Positions 27,237 to 44,132 of a stretch of DNA of 64,000 nt are shown in pieces. The stretch lies in the NCBI GenBank assembly GCA_963756795.1, contig CAVWPK010000012.1, forward strand, positions 495,194 to 559,193, written 5' to 3'. Origin of the DNA: an uncultured Actinomycetota bacterium. GTDB taxonomy: Bacteria > Actinomycetota > Actinomycetes > Propionibacteriales > Nocardioidaceae. A model generated the notes under the pieces. That model ran no database searches. It was not told the origin of the DNA and saw only the letters and a list, made by a program, of their open reading frames with translations. Numbering within the stretch: the stretch's first letter is position 1; each line of letters opens with the position of its first letter. The position numbers and the translations under genes were made by a program.

Positions 27237-29129
<1,893 letters not shown>

Positions 29130-29130
29130 C

Positions 29131-29487
29131 TCAGCTGACCTCGACCCGCCCGTAGTCGTCATCGAGCCGGCAGATGTCGTCCTCGCCGGTGTAGGTGCCG
29201 TGCTGCACCTCGATGATGATCAGCGGCTCGTCGTGCTCGTTGGCGATCCGGTGCGGTTCGCCGACCGCGACGTTGACGGAGTCCGCGACGTAGAGCACCC
29301 GGACGTCGTCGTCGATCACGCAGGTCGCGATGCCGGAGACGACGGTCCAGTGCTCGGCCCGGTGCGCGTGGGTCTGGTAGGACAGCCGGGCGCCGGGTTC
29401 GACGACGATCCGCTTCACCTTGAAGCCGTCGCCTTCGTCCAGCACCTGCCACGAGCCCCACGGTCGAATTGCGCTGTCACCGATCAC
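29131..29487 (-). CDS. Stand-alone mannose-6-phosphate isomerase type II cupin domain
   Basis: RPWGSW, VKRIVVEPGARLSYQTH.HRAEHW, EVQHGTYTGEDDICR..DDYGR. Confidence 0.9.
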   Translation of the reverse strand: MIGDSAIRPWGSWQVLDEGDGFKVKRIVVEPGARLSYQTHAHRAEHWTVVSGIATCVIDDDVRVLYVADSVNVAVGEPHRIANEHDEPLIIIEVQHGTYTGEDDICRLDDDYGRVEVS

Positions 29488-37423: not shown

Positions 37424-37476
37424 GAGCCTCGGGGCCGAGGCTCCTCGCACAGGGGGAGCCCGAACCCGGGGCTCAC
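37424..37476. terminator. Two hairpins between convergent cysN and the methyltransferase gene
   Basis: GAGCCTCGG gg CCGAGGCTC (perfect 9-bp stem) and GAGCCC..GGGCTC. Confidence 0.65.
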
Positions 37477-39500
37477 ACCACCTTGAAGATGTTGTCGTTG
37501 GAGATCTGCCGCACGGCGCGGTCCAACCGGAACTGCTGTCCTCGCACGACGTCGTTGTCACCGAGCAGGTCGGCGTACTCGGACTCGATCTCCCGAAGGG
37601 TGTCCAGCGCGTCGTCCTTGTGACCCTTGAGCGTCATCAGGTAGGCACGGGACACGCGCATCCGGAACTCGAAGCGCCGGTGGATCCCCGGGAACTGCAC
37701 CGCGTCGTGCAGGGCGAGGCACTCCTCGTAGGTGCCCTCCTTGAACGGGTCGTAGGCAGCCACGTCGGCCGGTACCGCCTTGACGGTGCGGTAGATCGAG
37801 CTCGACTGGACCTGCCCCTCCCAGCTGAAGTAGTCCTTGAGGTAGCCCATGGTGACCTTGATCCAGGGACACCGGTCGAAGAAGAAGTCCTGGTTGATGA
37901 GAGTCGACCCGCCCGGGATCAGCGCCGGGTAGAACTCCTTCGACACGTGCGCGTTGAGGTCGATCGTCTTGCACACGTCGATGAAGGCGACCTCGATCGG
38001 CGCGTCGGCCGGCCAGGTCTCCTCGTTCAGGTCACCGATGTGGAGCTGGATCAGGTCGGGATAGGGCTCGACCGCCTTCTCCAGGATCGGCACGAAGCTC
38101 TCGCCGGTGCGGTACTCGATGCCGAACCAGGTCCGGACCTGCTCCTGCGCGCCCTCGGGACGCGGGAAGTAGCCGAGCTCGTAGCCGTGGATCGGCTTTC
38201 CGTCGGGGAAGCGGTCCGCGCGCACGACGTCGGACCGGTCGATGGCCCGGACACCCTCCGCCGAGGCCACGATCGAGGACCCGAAGAAGCTTCCGCCGTC
38301 GATGATGGCGCCCTCACCCCGCCAGGTCCTGGTGACCAGGTTGGTCAGCATCGACCGCTCGAGGTAGGAGAGCATCCCCGGGGCGACCTCTGTCGTCCGA
38401 AGCGTCTCGGCCGTCTCCACGACGTCGAGCTCCTTCAGGAACTGGCTCCCGATCACATCGGGGCTCAGCCACTCTCCCGCAGCCGGGACGTCGACGGTCT
38501 CGGCGATCACCTTGGCCGCCTTCTGCACCGCCTTGTCGAGCCGGAACTGCTGGCCGCGTTCGGTGTCGTCGTCGCCGAGCAGCTCGGCATGGATCGTCTC
38601 GATCTCCTCGAGCGCGTCCATGGCGTCGTAGCCGTGTCCCTTGAGCACCATCAGGTGTGCCCGGGACAGGCGCATCCGGAAGTCGTACTTGGGGTCGAGG
38701 CCTGGGAACTCCACAGCGTCGTGCAAGGCGAGGCAGTCCGCGTAGCTCGCATTCTTGAAGGGGTCGTAGCCCGCGATGTCGGCGGGCACCGCCTTGACGG
38801 TGCGGAAGACCGCACTCGACTGGACCTGCCCCTCCCAGCTGAAGTAGTCCTTGAGATACCCCATGATGACCTTCAGCCATGGGGATCGGTCCGCGAAGAA
38901 GTCCCGGATGATCAAGGTCGAGCGACCCGGGATCAGCGCCGGGAAGAACTCGTTCACCATGTGGGCGTTGAGGCCGGCGGCCTTGGAGACGTCGATGAAG
39001 GCGACCTCGATCGGCGCATCGGAGGGCCAGGTCTCCTTCTTCAGGTCCCCGATATGGAGCTCGACGAGGTCGGTATACGGAGAGACCGCTTTCTCAAGGA
39101 TCGGCACGAAGCTGTCCCCGGTGCGGACCTCGACGCCTTGCCAGGTCCGGACCTCCGCCTTCGCGCCCTCGGGACGGGGGAGGTAGCCCAGGTCGTAGCC
39201 GTGGATCGGTTTCCCGCCAGGAAACCGCTCTGGTGTCAGCTGATCGGCCTGCTTCCCGCCTCGGACACCTTGCGCGAGGGCGGTGATCGAGGAGCCGAGG
39301 AAGCTGCCTCCGTCGATGATGGCGCCGTCACCCTGCCACGTCGTGGTCACCAGGTTCTCGAGCAGCGCCCGCTCGAGGTAGGACAGCATCCCCGGCACGA
39401 CCTCTGTCTGCCGCAGGGCGTTCGCCGTCTCGGGGATGCTGAGACTCTGGACGAACGGGGTCCCGAGCACGTCCGGGGTCAATCTCGCCACCGCGGTCAT
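37473..39500 (-). CDS. Internally duplicated class I SAM-methyltransferase-like protein (2 x ~338 aa)
   Basis: Each half has IIDGGSFxGSS, IHGY(D/E), HIGDL, FIDV.K, ALIPG..L..(R/Q)DF. Confidence 0.7.
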   Translation of the reverse strand: MTAVARLTPDVLGTPFVQSLSIPETANALRQTEVVPGMLSYLERALLENLVTTTWQGDGAIIDGGSFLGSSITALAQGVRGGKQADQLTPERFPGGKPIHGYDLGYLPRPEGAKAEVRTWQGVEVRTGDSFVPILEKAVSPYTDLVELHIGDLKKETWPSDAPIEVAFIDVSKAAGLNAHMVNEFFPALIPGRSTLIIRDFFADRSPWLKVIMGYLKDYFSWEGQVQSSAVFRTVKAVPADIAGYDPFKNASYADCLALHDAVEFPGLDPKYDFRMRLSRAHLMVLKGHGYDAMDALEEIETIHAELLGDDDTERGQQFRLDKAVQKAAKVIAETVDVPAAGEWLSPDVIGSQFLKELDVVETAETLRTTEVAPGMLSYLERSMLTNLVTRTWRGEGAIIDGGSFFGSSIVASAEGVRAIDRSDVVRADRFPDGKPIHGYELGYFPRPEGAQEQVRTWFGIEYRTGESFVPILEKAVEPYPDLIQLHIGDLNEETWPADAPIEVAFIDVCKTIDLNAHVSKEFYPALIPGGSTLINQDFFFDRCPWIKVTMGYLKDYFSWEGQVQSSSIYRTVKAVPADVAAYDPFKEGTYEECLALHDAVQFPGIHRRFEFRMRVSRAYLMTLKGHKDDALDTLREIESEYADLLGDNDVVRGQQFRLDRAVRQISNDNIFKVV

Positions 39501-39601: not shown

Positions 39602-40978
39602 TCAGCCGACAACGGTACCCGGCTCGCCGCCCGGCCCGTCCTTGGGGCGCGCCACGCAGAAGACGTTGGTGACGGTCAGGTCGCGCTCAGTGATGTCCGG
39701 CACCACCTCGCGAACCCGTTCGACCACAGCGGGGGTGAGCCGGGCGCAGGTGGCGTCGTCCGACAGGTCGTCGTCCCACCGGGCGATGGTGAAGTGCCGC
39801 TCGATCGCGTCTCGCAGCTCGTCGAGCCGCAGCCGGTTGAGGTTGACGATCAGCTCGTGATCATCGGGCAGGTCAGGCACGGCGTTGATGTGCCGCCAGT
39901 CGTAGACCTGCTGGTGTTCGGCGCTCTTCTCGTCGTACTGGTCAGGGCGACGCGGCTGCCGCTTGTGACCGCTCCAGCTGTAGAAGTTGTGGTGGAGGAA
40001 GATGACCTGGGTCTGCGGATGGCACAGGGTGGTGACGGACGCCAGGATCCGGTCGAGATCAGGCACGTGCTCGGACACGTTGTGAAGGACGATCGTGTCG
40101 AAGGTCCGGTCGAACTGATGGTCCTCGACCGTGCTCGGGATCACCTGGAGGGCGGGGACCGCCTCGCTGACCTGCCGGGGCGTCAGCCCCATGTCGTCCC
40201 ACCGGCGGGCCCGCTTGTTGCGCAAGCGCGAGCTGTCGAGCTCGACGGCGGGGTCGATCCCGGTGTAGGTCACCGCACCGGCGACCAGGTAGCCGATCCC
40301 GAGACCGCCCAGCCCGCACCCGACGTCGAGCACCGACTCGCCGAGGTGGTCCTGGATCCGCCTGGGCCAGGACAGGTAGTCGAACCGGGTGGCGACGTCG
40401 ATCAAGTGGGGGTCGTAGCTGCGCAGCGCCACGCCGAGATCGCGAGCGTGATGGAGGTAGGCGATCTTCGCCTGCGCGGTGTCGCGGACCCAGTCGGGTC
40501 CGGGCTCGATCTCGCGCAACCTCGCAGCGGCCTGCAGCAGGTCGGGACTCGGGGCTCCGGCGCGGGCCTCGAGGTAGTGGGCGTCGACGATTGCGATCTG
40601 CCCTGCCAGCTCCCGCGCGACGGCTGCGGCCTCGATCCGATCGAGGAGCCGGGGGGCCACCGCGTTGTCCGGCTCGAGCTCCAGCACGGTCCGCACCAGG
40701 TCCTCAGCCTGCTCGAGACTGCCGGCTGCGAGGTGCACCCGCGCCGCGAGAACGGCCGACCCGACGTGACGCGGCCGATGAGCGCGGAACGCCGTGACGA
40801 GCGGCGCGGCCAGCTCAGGACGCCCGAGCTCGAGCTCTGCTCGAGCAAGGAAGAACGTGGGCACGCCGTACGGGTCATCGGCAACCAGGGGCGCGAGGAG
40901 CCGGCGCGCGGTGTCCCAGTCCTTGACGGCCACCGCCTTCTTGGCGGCCTCGAGTTCGCTTGTGTTCGCCATTGTCAT
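39602..40978 (-). CDS. TPR-containing class I SAM-dependent methyltransferase
   Basis: N-terminal TPR-like helices; VLDVGCGLGG, YTGID, LHNVSEHV, HHNFYSWSGH. Confidence 0.8.
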   Translation of the reverse strand: MTMANTSELEAAKKAVAVKDWDTARRLLAPLVADDPYGVPTFFLARAELELGRPELAAPLVTAFRAHRPRHVGSAVLAARVHLAAGSLEQAEDLVRTVLELEPDNAVAPRLLDRIEAAAVARELAGQIAIVDAHYLEARAGAPSPDLLQAAARLREIEPGPDWVRDTAQAKIAYLHHARDLGVALRSYDPHLIDVATRFDYLSWPRRIQDHLGESVLDVGCGLGGLGIGYLVAGAVTYTGIDPAVELDSSRLRNKRARRWDDMGLTPRQVSEAVPALQVIPSTVEDHQFDRTFDTIVLHNVSEHVPDLDRILASVTTLCHPQTQVIFLHHNFYSWSGHKRQPRRPDQYDEKSAEHQQVYDWRHINAVPDLPDDHELIVNLNRLRLDELRDAIERHFTIARWDDDLSDDATCARLTPAVVERVREVVPDITERDLTVTNVFCVARPKDGPGGEPGTVVG

Positions 40979-40988
40979 CGCACGCCGT

Positions 40989-43900
40989 TCATCGTTTGCT
41001 CCACCAGCGCCTGACGGCGGGGGTCGGCGTCGCCGCGGTCGCCCCAGCCCCTTCGAGCACCGCCTGGCCTTGGTCCTCCCGGACCCTTCTCAGCCGCGGC
41101 ACGTTGCCCTGCGTGACGTAGAGGCGCCCGCGGTAGACCGCACCCTTGGTCTCCCACACCCGCAGCTGCAGGTCCCCGCCGGTGAGGAACTCCGGGAGGA
41201 CCGGGATCCGGTAGGCATGCGCCCCGCGCCCCGGCACGTCCTCGAGCGACCGGTCGGCAACGTCAGCCGAGACGACGAGGAGCGGCTTGCCCTCCCGCAT
41301 GACTGCGACGTGCAGCACCCGGTCGTGGTCCTCGCGGTCCCAGGCCCAGCCGTTGAGCCAGTCGCCCTCGGCCCAGCCCTCGGCCCGCTCCGGCGGCTTG
41401 AGCCCGGACCGGGCGGTGATCGGCCGCGGTCCGTCGGGTGGGTTCCTCAGCAGGTCGCTGCTGCGCAACACGACGCGCTCCGGGTCGAGCTTGCCGTCGA
41501 CCACGTCCATCGCTGCTGCGACCGCCTGGCTGACCAGCTCGTCGGTCATGTCGTTCTCCGGCTCCGCGACCAGGTCGGGGCGGCCGTACTGCCGATCCAT
41601 CAACTCCGTCAGGACCCGGGAGGAGAGCACCGAGTTGCGACCCGACAGGGCGAACGTCTTGGAACCGATCTTGTTGACCCGCAGGAAGACGCTGCGCAGC
41701 TTCTCCTCCTCGTCGTACAGCCCCCAGATCATCGGGTACGACGTCGACGGGGTCCAGTCCTCCGGCACCGGGAGGACCGAGAGGGTGATGTAGTCCTCGG
41801 TCCCCTCGACCCCGCGGGTGGCGACGAGGTCGACGGGGACCTCCTCGCCGCGGACGAGCAGGCGACGTTCCCCCGGTCCGCGAGCGTAGAACCAGAGCTC
41901 GTCCTGGGCAGCGTTGAGCCCGAGGATGACCCGCCGCTGGTGGGCGCCGGTCGCGTTCTCGGGGTCCCACGTCGCCGGCATCAGCCAGTGCGTGTCGGCC
42001 TCGTCGACCGAGTCGGTGCGGAGCAGGCGCTCGTCGACACCGCCCGGGCCGCCACCGGATCCGCCGTGCAGCGCCGCGAGGAGCACCTTGCGCTGCGAGA
42101 GCGGCGAAGCGTCGATGAGGGGCTTGGCCTTGAGGTAGGCGTACATCTGGTCGGACTTGAACGTGCGTCCGGTCGCGTCCGCGGCCGGCCACGCCAGCAG
42201 CTGCTCGGGGAGCACCAGCAGGTCGTGACCGATCTCCGTCGCGCGGGTGACGTATTCGTGGACGATGCCGTGGCGGACGTCGTACGGCTCGAAACCGCCG
42301 ATCACGTCGAACAGCTCCTTGCGGAGCGCGACCACCTCGGAGCCGTAGGCCCGCGAGGTGAGGATCTGGGACGCGACGTCACCGCCGAGCGGCATGCCGA
42401 GCAGGGCGTCATCGGTCGAGAAGAACGTCGTGAACATGGTGGACGGTCGATGGCTGAGGGCCTGTCGCGCCGCAGCGAAGAACCCGAACTGCGGCAACGT
42501 GCTGAGCCCGTCGGCGACGAACATCGCGTCCGACGACTGGGCGGCGACCAGGGTGTTGAGCGCGGTCCCCGCGGTCTGGCCGAGACAGTTGACGATCGTC
42601 ACGCTGGGGCATGCGTCGTCGAGGAGGCCGTGGACCTTCTCGAGCGCGGTCCGGACGCTCACGTCCGTGTAGCCGAGCACGAGCTCGTCCGGGGCCTCGG
42701 TGTGGCAGGCCTTGACGAGGTCTTCGAGCGAGTCGCCCCGGCGGACCAAGGCGACGTAGCTGATCGTGTCCGCCGGATCGGCCGGCTTGTCGATGCCCTC
42801 GATGATCTGGGCAACGGCGTCGGTGCTGCCGTGCTGCTCGATCAGCTCGCCGAGGTAGGCGTGGAAGCCGTACCAGACGTCGAGGTTGTCGTCGTTGGAG
42901 AACTGGGGGTGGGCGATCGCCTGCCCTTCTCGGAGCGCGACGGCCAGCCGGTCGGCGAGGTCCTGCGCCGTGGGCTCGACCAAGCAGGTGGCGTGGTCCC
43001 GTTCGGCAACCAGTTCCGGCGTGCCACCGACGGCCGTGGCGATGAAGGGCACGCGTTGCTCGAGGGTCTCGTAGACGGCCATCGTCGAGTTCTCGATCAG
43101 GGACGGCATGACCGCGATCAGGTCGCGCTCGGTGAGGAAAGTCAGCGCCTCGGGCTGGTTCTTGCCGGTGACCGTGACGACGGGGCACTCCCACGTCTCG
43201 GCCTTCTCGGCGAGGTAGTCCTCGGGCGTCATCCCGCCCTGTGCGGGCAGCTTGCCGCCCCACTTGCCGAGGAAGGTGACCGAGTCCGGGATCTCGCCGC
43301 GCTCGTGCAGCAGGTCGATCGCGTTGCAGAAGATCTCGATGCCCTTGCGCGCCTCCAGTCGCCCGAAGAACACGAGGTCGCGGCTCTTGACCACGTCGCC
43401 GTGCTGGCGCGGCAGACCGGGACGGTTGTCGATGACGGGAACGTTGGAGAAGTCCACGATGTTGGGCTGGACGAAGACGTTCGTCTCGGGCAACCGGTAG
43501 CCGATCCGCTCCATGAACGAGAGCAGGTGGGCAGAGCCACCGATCACGACGTCGGCGAGCTCGACGCACTTCTGCTCGGCGTACGCCGCGGCCACCAGGT
43601 TGGTGTCGGTGATCGGGAGCATCTGGTAGTGACGGTTCCAGATGTGGGGTGAGGACGTCTTGACCAGGAACAAGGTGTCGCGGAACGCCAGGCCGAGCCG
43701 CTTGGCCATCAGTGCGTAGACCAGGCCACCGCGCCATTCGGAGGTGTGCACGACGTCGAACGGCTCCTGGTCGCGGAGCCAGTCGTAGGCGCTGGCGTAG
43801 CGACGCTGCCAGTTCGGGGAGGCGCACCACACGGGCGTCTCGGAAACGTCGAGGTAGTGCAGGGTGACGCCGAACTCGGCGTAGCGCGTGACCCAGAACT

Positions 43901-44132
43901 CGGGCGTCTCGTCCTGCACGACCGGGCCCTTGAGGAAGAGCACGTGCACCTCGTGACCCTGGGCCGCAAGACCCTTGGCCAGGTGGTAGTAGGTGGATGC
44001 GATGCCGCCGTTGCGGACCGGGCCGATGATCTCCTCGGTCACGATGGCGACCCGAAGTCGGCTGGGCACATCGCTCAGCCCCACGGACTCGATGCCAGGG
44101 AAGCGCCTTACTTTGAAGTCGTCGCGTTGCAT
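40989..44132 (-). CDS. Large multidomain glycosyltransferase (GT4 + degenerate GT2-like + C-terminal domain)
   Basis: GPVRNGGIAS, VVHTSEW, FFGRLEARKG, PSLIEN, VGGTPEL; second module with GGFEP...HEYV; C-terminal GWAWD module. Confidence 0.85.
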   Translation of the reverse strand: MQRDDFKVRRFPGIESVGLSDVPSRLRVAIVTEEIIGPVRNGGIASTYYHLAKGLAAQGHEVHVLFLKGPVVQDETPEFWVTRYAEFGVTLHYLDVSETPVWCASPNWQRRYASAYDWLRDQEPFDVVHTSEWRGGLVYALMAKRLGLAFRDTLFLVKTSSPHIWNRHYQMLPITDTNLVAAAYAEQKCVELADVVIGGSAHLLSFMERIGYRLPETNVFVQPNIVDFSNVPVIDNRPGLPRQHGDVVKSRDLVFFGRLEARKGIEIFCNAIDLLHERGEIPDSVTFLGKWGGKLPAQGGMTPEDYLAEKAETWECPVVTVTGKNQPEALTFLTERDLIAVMPSLIENSTMAVYETLEQRVPFIATAVGGTPELVAERDHATCLVEPTAQDLADRLAVALREGQAIAHPQFSNDDNLDVWYGFHAYLGELIEQHGSTDAVAQIIEGIDKPADPADTISYVALVRRGDSLEDLVKACHTEAPDELVLGYTDVSVRTALEKVHGLLDDACPSVTIVNCLGQTAGTALNTLVAAQSSDAMFVADGLSTLPQFGFFAAARQALSHRPSTMFTTFFSTDDALLGMPLGGDVASQILTSRAYGSEVVALRKELFDVIGGFEPYDVRHGIVHEYVTRATEIGHDLLVLPEQLLAWPAADATGRTFKSDQMYAYLKAKPLIDASPLSQRKVLLAALHGGSGGGPGGVDERLLRTDSVDEADTHWLMPATWDPENATGAHQRRVILGLNAAQDELWFYARGPGERRLLVRGEEVPVDLVATRGVEGTEDYITLSVLPVPEDWTPSTSYPMIWGLYDEEEKLRSVFLRVNKIGSKTFALSGRNSVLSSRVLTELMDRQYGRPDLVAEPENDMTDELVSQAVAAAMDVVDGKLDPERVVLRSSDLLRNPPDGPRPITARSGLKPPERAEGWAEGDWLNGWAWDREDHDRVLHVAVMREGKPLLVVSADVADRSLEDVPGRGAHAYRIPVLPEFLTGGDLQLRVWETKGAVYRGRLYVTQGNVPRLRRVREDQGQAVLEGAGATAATPTPAVRRWWSKR

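Follow-up and report, generated by a model that had tools for sequence, protein, structure and literature searches.

A two-unit methyltransferase-like protein of a Nocardioides surface-glycopolymer cluster pairs a canonical module with an altered one

A protein that carries the same methyltransferase-like unit twice raises the question of whether both copies still do the same work and, if they do not, which copy has changed, in what way and how long ago. Such a protein, 675 residues long, is encoded in a 64,000-nucleotide stretch (hereafter the window) of an uncultured actinomycetotal bacterium of the Nocardioidaceae (assembly GCA_963756795.1, contig CAVWPK010000012.1, positions 495,194 to 559,193). 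In our view it is probably a single-chain pair of sugar O-methyltransferase-type modules, with a canonical C-terminal module and an altered N-terminal partner, that O-methylates a surface glycan. The parts of the gene on which the argument turns are the following (SAM, S-adenosylmethionine).

37473..39500, minus strand: the whole gene, 675 residues, two fused methyltransferase-like units (open reading frame list and translation)
38487..39500, minus strand: N-terminal unit, residues 1-338, the "R-type" module, which is derived; it evolves faster and has no Pfam match alone
37473..38486, minus strand: C-terminal unit, residues 339-675, the canonical "Q-type" module, nearest to single-domain homologs
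38904..38906, minus strand: codon CGG of Arg199, in place of the family Gln (translation and family alignment)
37890..37892, minus strand: codon CAG of Gln537, the ancestral residue, adjoining Asp538 (translation and family alignment)
38979..38999, minus strand: FIDVSKA, Asp170...Lys173, the N-half D-x-x-K after strand β4 (translation)
37965..37985, minus strand: FIDVCKT, Asp508...Lys511, the C-half D-x-x-K (translation)
Within 38892-38912, minus strand: IIRDFF of the N-half (translation)
Within 37878-37898, minus strand: INQDFF of the C-half (translation)
39288..39320, minus strand: IIDGGSFLGSS, the intact N-half copy of the glycine-rich SAM loop, motif I (translation and alignment)
38274..38306, minus strand: IIDGGSFFGSS, motif I of the C-half (translation; hhalign match to the TylF motif I region)
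38815..38855, minus strand: 41-nucleotide tract, copy in the N-half, encoding LKDYFSWEGQVQS; identical to 37801-37841
37801..37841, minus strand: 41-nucleotide tract, copy in the C-half; identical to 38815-38855

The open reading frame is a real gene and not an effect of assembly. Its GC content at third codon positions (GC3) is 0.91, similar to that of neighbouring genes, a Shine-Dalgarno-like GAGAGG lies 6 nucleotides before the ATG, and homologs of the product are found at about 70% identity; scanning the region around the gene for promoters and terminators gave no hits. Ungapped alignment of the halves at an offset of 1014 nucleotides (338 residues) gives 222 identities in 338 residues (65.7%) and 75.5% identity in DNA (77, 82 and 67% at codon positions 1, 2 and 3), and a repeat search of the window returns the same spacing. 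The repeat is far beyond chance. An earlier note, made from the sequence alone, had described two repeats of about 338 residues offset by 1014 bp, with FIDVCKT and INQDFF in the C-terminal copy and FIDVSKA and IIRDFF in the N-terminal one, and had placed a 41-bp identity between them. Alignment and translation bear out each of these observations; the identity is exact in position and length, and is the longest identical run between the halves.

The two halves differ markedly in how they have evolved. Among homologs, the N-terminal domains share 65% identity and the C-terminal domains 79%, and the corresponding ratios of nonsynonymous to synonymous substitution (omega) are 0.48 and 0.26, figures from a simple Nei-Gojobori count that, at a GC3 of 0.91, can be relied on only for the ratio of one half to the other. 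The N-half evolves about 1.7 times faster than the C-half and is still under purifying selection; the C-half is up to 84% identical to single-domain homologs. Counted over 140 family columns with at least 70% conservation, deviations number about 21 in N-domains against about 5 in C-domains. When the comparison is narrowed to 60 columns with at least 93% conservation, the sole change common to all N-domains (8/8) is the replacement of Gln by Arg at position 537 (C-half numbering), the other changes being variation at R543 and L544, Lys511 to Arg in three of eight domains and Asp538 to Glu in one. In the window protein itself, only the resulting Arg199 departs from the core signature.

This Arg is encoded by CGG or CGC and has thus been kept through synonymous change. 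Across 281 family domains, position 537 is Gln in 260, Arg in 19, and Ala and Lys in one each, a distribution by which Gln is judged the ancestral residue and Arg the derived one. The Gln/Arg asymmetry pointed out in the earlier note is accordingly real and, on this alignment, derived. Its companion claim of a Cys/Ser difference between the halves does not hold as a systematic feature, since the N-domains have S, S, S, C, C, C and C at this site and the wider family accepts Ala and Leu. Parallel changes at Gly402 and Ser408 of the SAM loop were discounted, since the family at large often has Ala and Gly at these sites.

AlphaFold2 models were obtained for the full-length protein (predicted local distance difference test, pLDDT, 92.9; predicted template modelling score, pTM, 0.62) and for one domain, the C-terminal unit (pLDDT 95.5, pTM 0.93). 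With both models, the best Foldseek matches in the PDB were MeT1 (6g80), SpnH (4ce0) and MycF (4xvy), with target-normalised template modelling (TM) scores of 0.54-0.68 per unit and a probability of 1.0, and nearly all top matches were class I methyltransferases. Each unit is predicted on this basis to adopt the class I (Rossmann-like) SAM methyltransferase fold, in line with the methyltransferase-like label that the protein had been given from its sequence. The last ~100 residues of each unit form helical hairpins with weak matches to tetratricopeptide repeats (TPR).

The conserved residues fall where such a fold would require them. In the C-half the signature reads D401-G-G-x-x-x-G, E441, G489-D490, D508-x-x-K511 and Q537-D538, and the N-half counterparts IIDGGSFLGSS, D103, G151-D152, Asp170, Lys173 and Asp200 are all kept. 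Motif I, the acidic residue after β2 and the G-D after β3 are invariant or nearly so in the 281 domains, strand positions being taken from DSSP on the AlphaFold2 model; in the D-x-x-K element, the Asp is found in 279 and the Lys in 261 of them. In COMT and CCoAOMT, a metal-binding Asp and a catalytic Lys lie three residues apart after β4, and a metal-binding pair follows β5. The spacing of D508-x-x-K511 and of Q537-D538, 30 residues further along, matches this arrangement (D-x-x-K ... D-N). As a D-x-x-base ... D pattern, it also agrees with that of Asp275, His278 and Asp304 in MycE (PMC9275233). Placed in this manner, by motif order and not by coordinates, Gln537 may be situated at or beside a metal-ligand position. 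The C-terminal module, which has the full family signature, is taken to be the canonical catalytic unit and probably metal-dependent, and the N-terminal module would no longer bind metal in the canonical way. The latter would act as a built-in partner and not as a second equivalent active site, either by mimicking one half of a dimer within a single chain or by serving as an acceptor- or SAM-binding module.

The same substitution has occurred repeatedly in other members of the family. Seventeen of the 19 Arg-type domains belong to two- or three-domain proteins; the remaining two are P0116, seemingly a class B C-domain fragment, and P0074, a true single-domain protein. The Arg-bearing lineages comprise the window group, with Arg in the N-terminal domain, a group of Nocardioides paralogs at 45% identity, with Arg in the C-terminal domain, and the proteins P0140, P0149, P0150 and P0225. 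In the tree, the Arg-type domain of P0150 is sister to its own Gln-type partner (starred, 99), both domains of P0140 group with one single-domain relative (starred, 99, three members), and the Arg-type domain of P0225 pairs with its Gln-type partner on a very long, unstarred branch (Shimodaira-Hasegawa-like approximate likelihood ratio test 86); that of P0149 does not pair with its own partner. Starred branches force at least seven changes of state. For the window-group N-domains and the C-domains of the 45% paralogs, one origin is rejected by the approximately unbiased (AU) test (p 0.04, or 0.008 without seven trait columns), and a single ancient Arg-type lineage serving both Nocardioides groups was ruled out by the tree, this test and the opposite domain order.

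An Arg-type domain is present in six of 11 two-domain lineages and in one of 246 single-domain proteins (p about 8e-9 in a Fisher test that is rough, using our own lineage count and no correction for kinship), and most of the two-domain lineages that lack Arg consist of very young duplicates. In the older Arg-type domains, all from other lineages, Lys511 has been lost (to P, A, N, E or D), often together with Asp538, so that the apparent order of events is Gln to Arg first, followed by decay of the other catalytic residues. Taken together, these observations raise the possibility, which we put forward tentatively and at somewhat less than even chances, of a repeated path in which duplication is followed by fixation of Arg at the probable metal site, by shedding of the catalytic Lys and Asp, and finally by an obligate non-catalytic partner, the window protein representing the youngest and as yet almost intact stage. 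Along such a path, the Arg guanidinium would stand in for the cation between two conserved Asp residues.

A second two-domain paralog, from the 45% group, is also found in the genome of the window (G000, contig C2:518358-520356; loci L003 and L004). Its second domain lies in another frame (P0017 ends in frameshifted sequence, with one TGA), and the near-invariant Asp after the Arg is Gly (VVRGIY). Either the copy is a pseudogene or its sequence contains an error.

What the sequences themselves establish is the duplication, how old it is, the asymmetry and its recurrence; methyl transfer, a metal role for the Gln and lost or changed catalysis in the N-half are inferred. Several points weigh against the assignment of a canonical and a non-equivalent module. 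The window N-half keeps Asp170, Lys173, Asp200 and the whole SAM loop under purifying selection, and the omega values behind the asymmetry are informative as a ratio only. The full-length pTM of 0.62, set against 0.93 for the single domain, and a low-confidence linker make dimer-like packing conjectural, and the position of Gln537 near a metal is read from motif order. An hhalign comparison with eleven TylF proteins aligned 23 columns, in motif I only (E 0.075), and residue-level mapping onto TylF by profile comparison was abandoned as motif I alone aligned. P0074 has Arg with all other residues canonical, in a normal locus with GT4 (glycosyltransferase family 4), family member, TPR-methyltransferase and LytR genes; as this is the only copy seen on its 5-kb contig, Arg appears to be tolerated, which argues against simple inactivation. 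CAG to CGG is moreover the only non-stop transition from the Gln codon CAG, and mutation bias may therefore contribute to which residue appears first. Finally, the searches made here returned no experimental study, activity, substrate or product for any family member.

Some of these same points are what would be expected if both modules were active and divided the work, the N-half having been re-specialised so that two positions or two substrates are methylated; the Arg might then confer metal independence, or hold an anionic acceptor, for instance a sugar that is sulfated. The retained SAM loop, Asp170, Lys173 and Asp200, an omega of 0.48 with an Arg that is conserved and not drifting, the normal locus of P0074, and the sulfotransferase and 3'-phosphoadenosine-5'-phosphosulfate (PAPS)-synthesis genes of the window cluster are all consistent with such a division. 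Phosphoethanolamine N-methyltransferases, in which two domains do different steps, offer a precedent for it. The plant and parasite enzymes of this kind have two class I domains per chain, and one of them (AtPMT2, 5wp5) is among the full-length Foldseek matches. That match is weak, with a TM of about 0.2 and a root-mean-square deviation of about 24 Å over the whole chain, and AtPMT2 differs in being a small-molecule N-methyltransferase with no common motif beyond the fold. A re-specialised N-half is, however, less easily reconciled with the changes of Lys to Arg in three and of Asp to Glu in one of the eight N-domains, or with the older Arg-type domains, whose outright loss of Lys and Asp looks like catalytic decay after the Gln-to-Arg change. 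The 45%-identity paralogs, in addition, underwent the same change with no sulfation genes nearby. We therefore regard a division of labour as unlikely, although it deserves to be taken seriously.

A different objection is that the fold is that of a methyltransferase and the function is not, for example binding of SAM or sugar without methyl transfer, in which case the asymmetry would say nothing about methylation. Support from Pfam is indeed marginal. The only Pfam model that touches the 675-residue protein is Methyltransf_24 (PF13578), which scores 29.8 bits from two stretches of the whole protein (gathering cut-off 26.3), 19.2 bits on the C-half alone, below the cut-off, and gives no match on the N-half; the cut-off is passed only when the scores of both halves are summed. 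NCBIfam has no match to the protein; PDB sequence searches, whether the query was the protein or a 62-sequence profile, returned no methyltransferase, only weak TPR-like matches to the tail; and PF05711 (TylF) gave no hmmscan match in the whole protein or in either half and found nothing in a search of the window's genome. A separate, conventional methyltransferase also always adjoins the gene. Nonetheless, the near-invariant residues sit exactly at the canonical positions of the SAM loop, the adenine contact, the D-x-x-K element and the Asp after β5, and the closest structural matches are without exception active sugar O-methyltransferases, which makes a function other than methyl transfer improbable. 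In terms of classification, the family is a separate and undescribed one within the methyltransferase fold, with no Pfam family of its own. The TylF proteins compared read LDTDWYES ... IDDY where the family of the two-unit protein reads FIDVCKT ... NQDFF; of the TylF acidic residues, it retains the first Asp and one of those further on, and has Cys or Lys and Gln in place of the others.

How long ago the two copies arose can be judged from the homologs. The two-domain architecture and its asymmetry are common to seven of them, and in a careful IQ-TREE analysis the window protein and six homologs have all their N- and C-domains in one starred clade (99/96), within which the N-domains are one group (support 85/92). 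The single-domain proteins P0047 (N. antri) and P0046 fall outside this two-domain clade. Synonymous divergence (dS) between the halves is 0.43-0.68 in the two-domain group, with 0.49 for the window protein, and that between homologs is 0.27-0.79, mostly 0.4-0.7; since the two ranges are similar, the duplication predates the split of these lineages. By these measures it is not recent, and it is not ancient within the family either. The earlier note was thus right to see a tandem duplication of a methyltransferase-like unit, and the "fairly recent intragenic" character that it proposed is not upheld. It had also considered that homologs might all have two domains with the same asymmetry; seven share both, yet the family is mostly single-domain.

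The mode of duplication is suggested by young relatives, in which the first copy keeps its C-terminal ...IFKVS tail and is followed by a linker of ~25-30 residues and a full second copy, a layout that looks like tandem duplication of a whole gene followed by fusion, as opposed to an internal repeat. In the scheme we favour, a single-domain gene of ~336 codons would have been duplicated in tandem at the locus, and the copies fused, before the two-domain homologs diverged. The syntenic locus of N. antri holds GT4, TPR-methyltransferase, an open reading frame of 214 residues, the single-domain gene, cysN and cysD. The 214-residue frame was considered as a remnant of an N-domain and ruled out, as it has no similarity.

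The 41-nucleotide run is in itself mildly unusual (P about 0.01-0.03 in codon-column shuffles). All homologs, and the single-domain outgroup as well, use nearly identical codons for its motif, LKDYFSWEGQVQS, which rules out gene conversion or recency as the source of the run; conserved residues and codon bias suffice to explain the identity. That the gene is a recent and unstable internal duplication, collapsible through this tract and with one half freshly inactivated, is very improbable, for although the run exists and is longer than in 97-99% of shuffles, and although some relatives do contain truly recent copies, dS between the two halves is 0.49 in the window protein, seven homologs retain both halves and the asymmetry, the tract codons are unchanged in homologs and outgroup, and no collapsed form was seen, sequencing reads not being among the data looked at.

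The relatives in question are independent, very young tandem copies. G069, a complete genome of the genus, encodes two near-identical Gln-type domains with a dS of 0.08 (L008:409-2577), and P0002 (L006:8001-11117) has three domains, one Arg-type and two Gln-type, with a dS of 0.19 between domains 2 and 3. P0008, a similar protein, is partial in its NCBI record, probably through an assembly break in the repeat. P0045 (336 residues, on a 1490-nucleotide Joint Genome Institute contig) is an apparently complete single domain nested inside the C-domain crown group, either through secondary loss of the N-half or through an effect of gene calling on a short contig.

With a cut-off of E <= 0.001, a profile search for the family returned 2146 cluster representatives; 541 remained at E <= 1e-30. 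Most members consist of one domain of ~310-350 residues (typically ~336), so that the single-domain homologs sought for the window protein both exist and are the norm. Within the genus Nocardioides, members are rare (four of 81 sampled genomes). The gene travels in a conserved module with two partners, which in the window are the following.

39602..40978, minus strand: TPR-methyltransferase, upstream partner, 458 residues, with N-terminal TPR and Methyltransf_23/12 (Pfam)
40989..44132, minus strand: GT4 glycosyltransferase, partner, 1047 residues, with a long unclassified C-terminal region (Pfam)

This module, a ~1050-residue GT4, the methyltransferase-like protein and a TPR-methyltransferase, is kept across Actinomycetota, Alpha- and Gammaproteobacteria. 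A TPR-methyltransferase of ~450 residues lies beside the family gene in the N. antri, TF02-7, HM23, Tropicibacter and Microbulbifer records, and a GT4 of ~900-1070 residues is also present in all five except at the HM23 paralog locus. In the metagenomic protein P0006, a two-domain protein is fused to the last 170 residues of the GT4 (60% identity, E 5e-58), which suggests that the two work together.

The window cluster also contains cysD/cysN, an adenosine-5'-phosphosulfate (APS)-kinase fusion, LytR-CpsA-Psr, a priming sugar transferase, a Wzz/tyrosine-kinase-like protein and a sulfotransferase. It is a Nocardioides surface-glycopolymer cluster that includes PAPS-synthesis and sulfotransferase genes, and the module would presumably O-methylate the glycan of this cluster. 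More broadly, the combination of GT4, family member and TPR-methyltransferase points to an unstudied route to O-methylated, and here perhaps sulfated, surface glycans.

A comparison with known systems helps to place these features. MeT1, SpnH and MycF are alike in being metal-dependent and acting on sugar hydroxyls. SpnH and MycF belong to the TylF/MycF group of sugar O-methyltransferases, and MeT1, from Mycobacterium hassiacum, is the 1-O-methyltransferase of methylmannose polysaccharide synthesis. The small MeT1 cluster, with its GT4-type mannosyltransferase and second methyltransferase (PMC9883506), echoes the arrangement of GT4, family member and TPR-methyltransferase. All three enzymes are single-domain and share 12-17% sequence identity with the window units, which are ~100 residues longer, owing to a TPR-like helical tail, and have the signature D-x-x-K ... 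Q-D in place of the D-x-D ... D-D of the TylF proteins compared. COMT and CCoAOMT, which are relatives in Methyltransf_3 and Methyltransf_24, differ in their catechol substrate, as opposed to the presumed sugar, and in lacking the extra tail.

In terms of overall design, the closest likeness is to PRMT7 and PRMT9, whose tandem methyltransferase modules form a homodimer-like single chain with one inactive module. As in the window protein, the PRMT7 modules are duplicated and fused, one being canonical and one diverged, and single-module relatives persist in other lineages (PMC8399567). PRMT7 differs in belonging to another methyltransferase family, in its protein arginine substrate and in being eukaryotic. 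Its dead module is without SAM-binding motifs, whereas the window N-half keeps them, and what sets it apart is a single replacement at the probable metal site. The modules of PRMT7 are known from a solved structure to pack like a homodimer, an arrangement that is conjectural for the window protein (pTM 0.62).

Fused pairs of a live and an altered enzyme are, as PRMT7 illustrates, an established theme. In the present family, decay of the altered copy has gone further in some lineages than in others, and a recurrent first substitution combined with graded decay would make the order of pseudo-enzyme evolution testable with few point mutants. If the repeated path is true, it amounts to a natural time course in which a homodimeric enzyme becomes a live/dead single chain and the first step can be predicted. 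Beyond this, the analysis brings out a large family without a Pfam model of its own, accompanied in both Actinomycetota and Proteobacteria by a giant GT4 and a TPR-methyltransferase. For the host genome, the gene is an ordinary accessory gene of glycan modification.

Some further observations concern the partners and architectures. In the window GT4 (40989-44132, minus strand), Pfam matches are confined to the first ~400 residues; the other ~640 have no classification, even though the family's neighbours in Nocardioides, Tropicibacter and Microbulbifer conserve them. The P0006 gene lies at L017:2501-5071, its GT4 portion matching window positions 40989-41500, in a locus without a GT4 gene and with Tad-pilus genes. 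Two fusions hint at a functional link of sulfation to this kind of methylation: P0042 (Parasphingopyxis marina) joins Sulfotransfer_1/3 to one family unit, and on the P0002 contig a gene of 556 codons (L006:17049-18719) combines Sulfotransfer_3 and Methyltransf_24. A third architecture, ~480 residues long, has one family unit followed by a C-terminal TPR region (L037:5820-7304 of genome G006; P0018-P0041), which mirrors the TPR-then-methyltransferase order of the neighbour; the G006 locus is not a glycan cluster. Elsewhere in the window, an open reading frame of 641 residues at 27237-29162 (minus strand) matches NTP_transferase only at residues 354-586, and is overlapped by a frame of 419 residues at 27870-29129 (plus strand) with coding-like GC3, leaving strand and start ambiguous for the first ~350 codons.

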